Assembly (NCBI GenBank): GCA_964016885.1
Contig: OZ024740.1
Span: 274,536,001 to 274,600,000, forward strand
Length of the DNA stretch: 64,000 nucleotides
Direction of reading: 5' to 3'
Source of the DNA: Eledone cirrhosa
Taxonomy: Eukaryota
Position numbers and translations under genes: made by a program. The notes under the pieces are model-generated. The model searched no databases. It was given only the letters and a program-made list of their open reading frames with translations, and had not been told where the DNA came from. Below, in pieces: positions 39,807 through 40,470 of the stretch (positions are counted from its first letter, which is position 1; every line of letters begins with the position of its first letter).

Positions 39807-40281
39807 ATATAGACACACGATTTCATATAAAAAACCTCGCTAAACTAATATATATATATATATACATATATATATATATATATATATATATATATATATA
39901 TATATATATATATATATATATATATATATATATATATATATATATATATATATGTTCTGGCTCATTAATTTATTAACCTGCCATAGAACCACATTGGCAT
40001 ACGGTTGGATAATACTTGTATCCCTATATGTATTTTTTACACGTAGGAACACATACTTTATTATTATTATTCTCCCCTAAGGTAGAGCTAACATTTTGGT
40101 CGTTTGAACTGCTGCTATTTCTAGTGGCAGGACATTGACTTGTCCACCCCTGCCTTCTGTCTTTACACACGGCACTAGTCAGAATTGGTCCCTTCCTCAT
40201 TCACTCTCATCTGGGAACAGCTTTGTATGGTGCCAGTTTGTGATTTGAACTCGGGAATTTTATATTCTCCGAGCGAGAAGA

Positions 40282-40365
40282 ACCTTCTGACGAGAATCCC
40301 CTTCTCAATGGTTGTCCGCTTGGATTATCCATTCATTTTGGGATTTGAAACCGTGCGGTAAGGGT
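40282..40365 (+). ncRNA. Type-I hammerhead ribozyme, intact core, inside a TA-flanked insert (about 39955-40437)
   Basis: Stem I ACCTT/AGGGT, CTGACGA, stem II GAATCCC/GGGATTT with large structured loop, GAAA-CCG TG CGG-TA (GUA site). Confidence 0.85.
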
Positions 40366-40470
40366 ACATATAGTAAGTACAGCAAACTTTTTAAAATTTA
40401 TTTAAAAACTTTTTCTCTATTTGCTAAACCTTGATTTTATATATATATATATATATATATATATATATAT

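Follow-up and report, generated by a model that had tools for sequence, protein, structure and literature searches.

An intact hammerhead motif with a long arm II in a non-coding insert between (TA)n tracts

The insert and its hammerhead motif

Within the window (the whole 64-kb stretch of DNA analyzed), a 484-nt insert with a GC content of 38.8% lies between an (AT)53 and a (TA)16 tract and carries a hammerhead motif in sense orientation near its 3' end (Table 1). The window is AT-rich eukaryotic DNA, rich in (TA)n tracts, SINE-like repeats and fragments of RT-PHD LINEs. A first-pass annotation had placed an insert of about 480 bp at 39955..40437; the size agrees, and the left boundary falls one base earlier, at 39954. 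Searches with blastn, nhmmer --max and tblastx found no second copy in the 64 kb, where the best non-self blastn matches are 17-nt AT-rich words. The tandem copies for which that annotation had proposed a search are absent from the 64-kb window, as are dispersed ones, and neither a tandem unit nor a terminal redundancy is present within 64 kb. A partial tandem pLTR, an inverted 5' copy and a 30–40-bp tail are all missing from the insert.

Table 1. Features of the insert and its flanks (window positions).
Feature	Positions	Strand	Evidence or remark
(AT)53 tract	39848..39953		Left part of the microsatellite target; TRF period 2, 98% matches
Non-coding insert, single copy in window	39954..40437	+	Inferred 3' end (solo pseudo-LTR) of a Penelope-like element (PLE)
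Structured upstream body, several hairpins	39954..40281	+	z -4.0 (+), -3.1 (-)
GAGAAG tail 5' of stem I	40275..40280	+	Complement of one strand of the arm II internal loop; pseudoknot possible
Stem I 5' strand ACCUU	40282..40286	+	Descriptor search
Catalytic core C3–A9, CUGACGA	40287..40293	+	Descriptor search
Arm II, 53 nt	40294..40346	+	7-bp stem, 6x6 internal loop, 5-bp and 4-bp helices, GCUU loop
G12–A14 and 10-nt self-complementary stem III arm ACCGUGCGGU (40350-40359)	40347..40359	+	Folding, cofolding
A17 of GUA triplet	40360	+	Predicted cleavage 3' of 40360, from hammerhead numbering
Stem I 3' strand AGGGU	40361..40365	+	Descriptor search
3'-terminal hairpin (40371-40426), then second ACCUU (40428-40432)	40371..40432	+	z of 3' tail only -1.85
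(TA)16 tract	40438..40470		Right part of the microsatellite target; TRF

No Pfam domain matched in any of the insert frames scanned (6/6), and none of 13 candidate relatives of its 60-aa sense frame scored. A Pfam scan of 115 of the 262 window frames of at least 55 aa, together with four shorter insert frames, returned LINE RT and endonuclease matches and two weak, unrelated ones; the window RT ORFs belong to RT-PHD LINEs, and GIY-YIG had no Pfam match in any of 126 window frames scanned. As judged by the z values of the two strands (Table 1), the structure of the upstream body is not strand-specific. A GTAAGT word at 40373-40378, 13 nt 3' of the cleavage site, resembles a splice donor, and an intron of the 5' UTR can begin within a PLE pseudo-LTR; the word may be chance.

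The insert carries a genuine type I hammerhead with an intact core; cleavage itself is predicted. All positions of CUGACGA/GAAA/GUA (C3–A9, G12–A14, A15.1–U16.1 and H17) are present, with GAAA at 40347-40350, and three helices surround the core: an open-ended stem I of 5 bp, a stem II of 7 bp and a stem III of 3–4 bp. Stem I (ACCUU/AGGGU) includes one G-U pair. Stem II is formed by GAAUCCC (40294-40300) and GGGAUUU (40340-40346), and its first pair is G-U, not the usual, though not obligatory, G10.1-C11.1. Arm II then continues as a 39-nt extension, in which an internal loop (CUUCUC, 40301-06, facing CAUUUU, 40334-39) is followed by AAUGG/CCAUU (40307-11/40329-33) and by GUCC/GGAU with its GCUU loop. 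The full hammerhead with an extended 7-bp stem II and a nested aatgg..ccatt hairpin, as the first-pass annotation had it, can thus be read directly in the sequence. For stem III, given there as ACCG-UG-CGGU, the letters are correct, but a realistic monomer would form 3 bp and a GUGC tetraloop (-0.9 kcal/mol), because a fourth pair would close a 2-nt loop. By hammerhead numbering cleavage is predicted after 40360, the position already proposed; this putative site lies 77 nt, and the end of stem I 72 nt, from the 3' end of the insert. Two neighboring elements have alternative partners: the GAGAAG tail can pair either with 40284-40288, thereby blocking stem I, or with a strand of a hairpin further upstream, near 40265, and the second ACCUU competes for the 3' strand of stem I.

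We compared a descriptor search of the window with 100 block-wise dinucleotide shuffles. With stems I, II and III of at least 5, 7 and 4 bp, two cores were found in the window and none in 100/100 shuffles; with at least 5, 5 and 3 bp, three cores and 0/100; the loosest descriptor gave at least one motif in 3–5 of the 100 shuffles. Arm II with its extension folds with a z of -2.4, and stem II has a pair probability of 0.8–0.99 in the minimal construct and 0.41–0.63 in the whole insert. That the motif is a chance arrangement of core-like words is scarcely credible: no shuffled window (0/100) yields it with these stems, and every core position and all three helices are present. In favor of chance are an unremarkable MFE for 40275-40385 (z -0.9), two chance matches of the 23-base motif pattern in bacterial coding regions, and the failure of Rfam to call the motif. 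The Rfam hammerhead had no match at gathering score over the whole window and was not among the 42 matches at E≤10 in 39600-41500, a miss probably due to the long arm II. A search of prokaryotic and phage collections gave 0 matches; the two bacterial ORF matches have no stem II and were rejected as chance, and a single phage match of 27 nt is AT-rich.

Monomer, dimer and the long arm II

In folding models the active structure reaches a probability of 2e-4 in the minimal construct; in five longer contexts the value ranges from 4e-5 to 1e-3, and the active monomer fold lies 4–6 kcal/mol above the MFE in all contexts (6/6). By comparison, a hammerhead at 60499 reaches 0.015–0.078, and in its longer context the active structure is the MFE; the minimal construct of another core, at 11759, reaches 0.011, falling to 3e-8 in its longer context. 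Such absolute probabilities are too low, because nearest-neighbour models omit non-canonical core pairs, Mg2+ and pseudoknots. The stem III arm prefers itself as partner, with -15.4 kcal/mol for a 10-bp self-duplex versus -0.9 for the hairpin, although among the three hammerheads tested only that of the insert has a stem III hairpin of negative energy. In the models, then, the motif does not behave as the best candidate for monomeric cleavage, as it had been described; the 60499 hammerhead would be the better candidate in vitro. Some monomer cleavage may still occur, in view of the stem III hairpin at -0.9 kcal/mol and of core contacts that the model ignores.

The cofold MFE of two 40282-40365 copies is a double hammerhead (-53.2 versus -49.4 kcal/mol for two monomers), and the intermolecular stem III has a pairing probability of 0.88–1.0 in 4/4 cofolds. 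When natural flanks are included, stem III is kept as a 10-bp intermolecular helix (0.91–1.0), but the probability of stem I is 0.16–0.28, 0.0 and 0.01–0.02 in three longer constructs, in all of which (3/3) it loses out to a competitor: the hairpin of the GAGAAG tail over 40284-40288, a refolded arm II, or the second ACCUU at 40428-40432. Since stem I drops in the flanked dimers, a dimer alone does not secure the active fold. The modelled 10-bp self-pairing of the stem III arm is the signature of dimer-type hammerheads, and the models favor a hammerhead that is dimer- or chaperone-dependent and inefficient.

This modelled behavior matches that published for PLE hammerheads. Minimal PLE hammerheads are described as inactive or poor as monomers and weak as dimers (PMC4209133), and the Poseidon hammerhead cleaves only with protein present and is dispensable for insertion in vitro (PMC11167929). 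As a caveat, an axolotl hammerhead with a 2-bp stem III, shorter than the 3 bp plus tetraloop of the insert, gave 22% monomer cleavage in an hour (PMC7229834).

No canonical loop 1–loop 2 module is present in the hammerhead of the insert. An alternative is that a pseudoknot between GAGAAG (40275-80) and CUUCUC (40301-06) replaces this contact and frees stem I, making the motif an efficient monomer, which we regard as distinctly unlikely. GAGAAG lies one base from stem I and is a perfect 6-bp complement of the arm II strand; the chance of such a match is 1.2% as judged from window segments, 1.8% by local permutation, 5% with the tail letters permuted and 7% with G-U allowed, and at the other cores tested (4/5) the same complementarity extends over only 4–5 bp. 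Some 40% of hammerheads are reported to use a stem I–stem II pseudoknot of this kind (PMC3088659). When both hexamers were kept from nested pairing, the probability of stem I in the dimer rose from 0.16–0.28 to 0.45–0.82 in a 101-nt construct. However, under the same constraint the monomer was still misfolded (stem III probability 0.0–0.01) and a 198-nt construct showed no gain; stem I, with 5 bp, is shorter than the 7-bp stem II; and the match was spotted after the fact and is without covariation support, because there are no homologues. The pseudoknot is therefore best taken as a possible lead, not a result, and its mechanism is compatible with either a PLE or a retrozyme origin. The hammerheads of Perreault et al. 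2011 (PMC3088659) likewise include stem I–II pseudoknots of at least 4 bp and, according to the legend of their Fig. S8, a palindromic loop III that gives a 10-bp dimer stem; unlike these, the putative pseudoknot of the insert uses the internal loop of a long arm II.

The 53-nt spacer of arm II compares with 27 and 38–39 nt at the other hammerhead loci of the window, and is about twice the longest core-to-GAAA spacer (26 nt) of the Hydra table in PMC8557442. In that table loop 2 measures 3–10 nt in 26/26 rows, whereas the insert has its 39-nt two-helix extension. A precedent is found in the Selaginella PLE-X1 hammerheads, whose loop 2 has 29 and 35 nt (by eye; PMC8557442 File S2, where they are marked as deviating), although these come from a plant element that is endonuclease-less, targets 28S rDNA and has different stems I and III. 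No metazoan PLE hammerhead whose arm II has several helices turned up in the literature searched, which included few subscription papers and Repbase reports.

It is conceivable, although unlikely in our estimate, that the host PLEs carry undescribed long-armed hammerheads missed by Rfam and short-spacer descriptors, and that the extension here is a gating switch. The class would be based on the three spacer lengths (27, 38–39 and 53 nt) at three loci of one 64-kb window. In such a switch, the internal loop of arm II would capture the 5' tail as a pseudoknot which, with the palindromic stem III and the ACCUU decoy, would gate cleavage to tandem or protein-bound transcripts. Were this to apply widely, complete ribozymes would be present in some of the PLEs that have been classed as "half-core" or as lacking a hammerhead. 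The core halves of half-core PLEs are 35–50 nt apart (PMC8557442); in the one example compared, Naiad_Ovul, GAAA precedes CUGAUGA, which does not fit a long-arm reading. A Naiad origin of the insert, raised by the half-core elements, was rejected on the absence of a 12-mer match to the consensi published in that supplement and on a different 3' layout.

Origin of the insert

The motif, its near-3' position and the TA flanks, in an insert that has neither coding sequence nor a second copy, suggest that the insert is probably the 3'-terminal piece of a PLE (a solo pseudo-LTR) or of a short, non-autonomous derivative of one, with the (TA)n-targeting Hydra clade as the closest likeness. The first-pass annotation had offered both a solo pseudo-LTR and a retrozyme monomer; the former is supported by the PLE-3'-end layout, the near-3' sense hammerhead and the (TA)n flanks. 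A remnant of a telomerase-like RT or GIY-YIG ORF is not found in the insert, which is expected for a 5'-truncated copy, and we therefore file the insert as a probable remnant and not as a full member.

A plausible course of events would begin with a PLE protein, encoded elsewhere, nicking a (TA)n tract. Reverse transcription would be primed near the 3' end of the element RNA and would halt after about 480 nt, leaving a hammerhead-bearing end without an ORF. The lone RNA would favor an inactive rod, in which the stem III arm pairs with the core and the 5' strand of stem I; where two copies are present, as in tandem PLE transcripts, their palindromic stem III arms would pair over 10 bp and open both cores. 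Since a monomer would thus be an inactive rod and a dimer would open the cores, a dimer or a protein would assist cleavage after 40360, which would release unit-length RNA from tandem transcripts. At the solo locus the ribozyme is probably slow or silent.

The closest architecture is that of the Hydra-clade PLE hammerheads (such as Penelope-1/2_SK, Hydra-1_aMil and Penelope-2_NV; PMC8557442, Craig et al. 2021). In common with these, the motif is type I, with a 4+2+4 palindromic stem III, a 7-bp stem II and no canonical loop 1, lies 30–110 nt from the 3' end and sits at a (TA)n target. In the supplement of that paper (File S1/S2), the distance from hammerhead to 3' end is about 30–110 nt in four Hydra entries (worked out by hand); counted by eye, 23/26 Hydra rows of File S2 have a 4-bp stem III with a 1–2-nt loop, 6 of these 23 have the 4+2+4 form seen in the insert, and File S1 gives a (TA)n target for 26/27 Hydra families. 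Unlike Hydra PLEs, the insert lacks an ORF and a tail motif, and no sequence homology to them was detected: two 12-mers of its hammerhead have no match in the Naiad, Chlamys and Hydra consensi published in the supplement, and the 3' end of Hydra-1_Obim, compared by eye, is unrelated. As 10-nt palindromic stems III also occur in non-Hydra PLEs, from Aedes and D. willistoni (PMC4209133), the Hydra clade is a lead only, and the tie of the insert to Hydra-type PLEs is one of architecture and target, not of homology.

The minimal and variant PLE hammerheads of Cervera and de la Pena 2014 (PMC4209133) have a helix II of 7–8 bp, a helix I of 4–5 bp and a palindromic helix III, and most are single motifs from truncated elements. 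The insert shares these helix lengths and the palindromic helix III, the solo state of a probable truncated PLE and, as modelled, the dimer dependence. It differs in lacking an unpaired base between A9 and 10.1, in the G-U that replaces G10.1-C11.1, in a real helix III of 3–4 bp and in a much longer arm II. Natural U-U variants of 10.1-11.1 are known (PMC3088659) and are common in the Hydra table (PMC8557442).

The retrozyme monomer fared less well. It is possible, but not likely, that the insert is a lone monomer from some family of non-LTR retrozymes, the copies of which elsewhere would be tandem and unit-length, circularised and re-inserted by PLE machinery. The insert is non-coding, without an ORF, has a GC content below 45% and is highly self-paired (circular fold, z -3.9), properties that, along with a type I hammerhead and a length of a few hundred nt, it has in common with metazoan non-LTR retrozymes (PMC7229834; bioRxiv 10.64898/2026.07.22.740005). 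Retrozyme solo monomers are common and family lengths span 51–972 bp (bioRxiv 10.64898/2026.07.22.740005), and mussel retrozyme hammerheads that miss most loop-loop nucleotides still cleave at about 0.1 per min (PMC7229834). Against this, the 64 kb contain no tandem array, tandem unit, terminal redundancy or second copy, tandem or dispersed; the canonical 4-bp stem II with its loop-loop contact is missing; and the self-pairing of the minus strand is just as strong (z -4.7 versus -4.4). In addition, 484 nt slightly exceeds the 150–450-bp range of metazoan retrozymes (PMC7229834), and the hammerhead is PLE-type in its proportions and placed as at a PLE 3' end. Retrozymes and PLEs are linked (bioRxiv 10.64898/2026.07.22.740005), and because PLE pseudo-LTRs appear to be the source of retrozymes, the two readings overlap.

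The abundance of LINEs and SINE-like repeats in the window, and the preservation of every stem in a solitary copy, could also point to a hammerhead of another kind of element, such as a LINE or SINE end, or to one kept by the host, e.g., in an intron. We consider this highly unlikely, in that the insert resembles none of the LINEs or SINE-like repeats of the window and is inserted in pure (TA)n among fragments of other repeats, and a recent insertion explains the intact motif equally well. A tRNA-derived SINE was rejected, there being no tRNA gene in the window.

An invertebrate genome contains thousands of hammerheads at PLE ends, which makes a further one ordinary. The insert can be classed neither as a full PLE, for it lacks an ORF and a pLTR pair, nor as a retrozyme (no tandem, no canonical loop-loop module), and based on the models we propose that it works like a PLE pseudo-LTR hammerhead: of an ordinary kind and a mildly unusual variant, in which the 53-nt arm II and the possible 6-bp pseudoknot are new. 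Its value is modest and lies in the architecture of the long arm II. A published core search used a 7–17-nt spacer (PMC8557442); as a complete motif with a 53-nt arm escapes both this spacer and Rfam, counts of PLE hammerheads may be too low. The insert also provides a small, cheap construct with which to ask what a PLE hammerhead does and whether its cleavage needs a partner RNA or an element protein.

Other hammerhead loci and repeats in the window

Two further hammerhead loci, 11673-11889 and 60302-60579, are inverted pairs, an arrangement that has been described for PLE insertions (PMC8557442, section 6). The first has cores at 11804(+) and 11759(-) with an arm II of 38–39 nt; the second, within 60240-60579, has complete inverted hammerheads at 60499(+) and 60382(-). 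The two loci share 3' sequence (about 81–83% over 47–52 nt) that is not shared with the insert, and a MAFFT alignment of the hammerhead of the insert with four other cores mis-registered its row and gave no sign of homology. On one side only, the 60302 pair bears a tail (60270-60293), whose motif occurs once in the window and in 2/100 shuffles. A 9-mer of this tail is found twice in the 584-kb supplement of PMC8557442, both times in Hydra consensi, and Hydra-type PLEs are therefore present in this genome.

A second repeat family is represented by 15447-16231, with fragments at 39636-39850, from 40471 to about 40700, and at 28374; two of the fragments flank the 484-nt insert. Its members share a terminus of 22 nt, found in 5 copies against 0 expected; the family also has an inverted arm of 107 nt, a tail of about 40 nt that recurs at 39812-39850, and a decayed hammerhead core at 15955. 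It is probably another PLE derivative, with a MITE as the alternative. A 39-aa stretch at 15538-15654 has a tentative likeness to a GIY-YIG lead-in, and had no relatives among 1.84 billion representatives.

Several other stretches have hammerhead-like features. A 508-nt palindrome at 26080-26587 is 100% perfect and includes a decayed, minimal-hammerhead-like stretch near 26410-26445; it represents either an inverted PLE insertion of very recent date or an artefact of the assembly. Just downstream of the insert, a hammerhead-like core in decay (40802) lies close to the middle of a 72% inverted repeat (40672-40966). At 11241 on the minus strand, a minimal-hammerhead-like core with a short stem II and GAAA was noted by eye and failed the descriptors.

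The repeats of the window appear similar to those of octopus genomes. LINE copies with an RT followed by a PHD finger (PF00078, PF00628) are located at 31572-33268, 33489-35888, 47501-49371(-), 8698-10528 and 42594-43457, of which the first two are 93% identical and arranged head to tail. Named relatives of the RT-PHD ORFs come from a hydrozoan, amphioxus, a catfish and two bacterial bins, and the relatives are mostly unnamed; the element described in the octopus RTE paper is a C2H2 and not a PHD one (PMC9115989). A further LINE, represented at 62297-63998 by its 5' part, carries an AP-endonuclease domain (PF14529) and runs off the window end. Finally, a 614-nt direct repeat of 95% identity (54435-55044 and 56035-56644) surrounds a LINE fragment with DUF6451.
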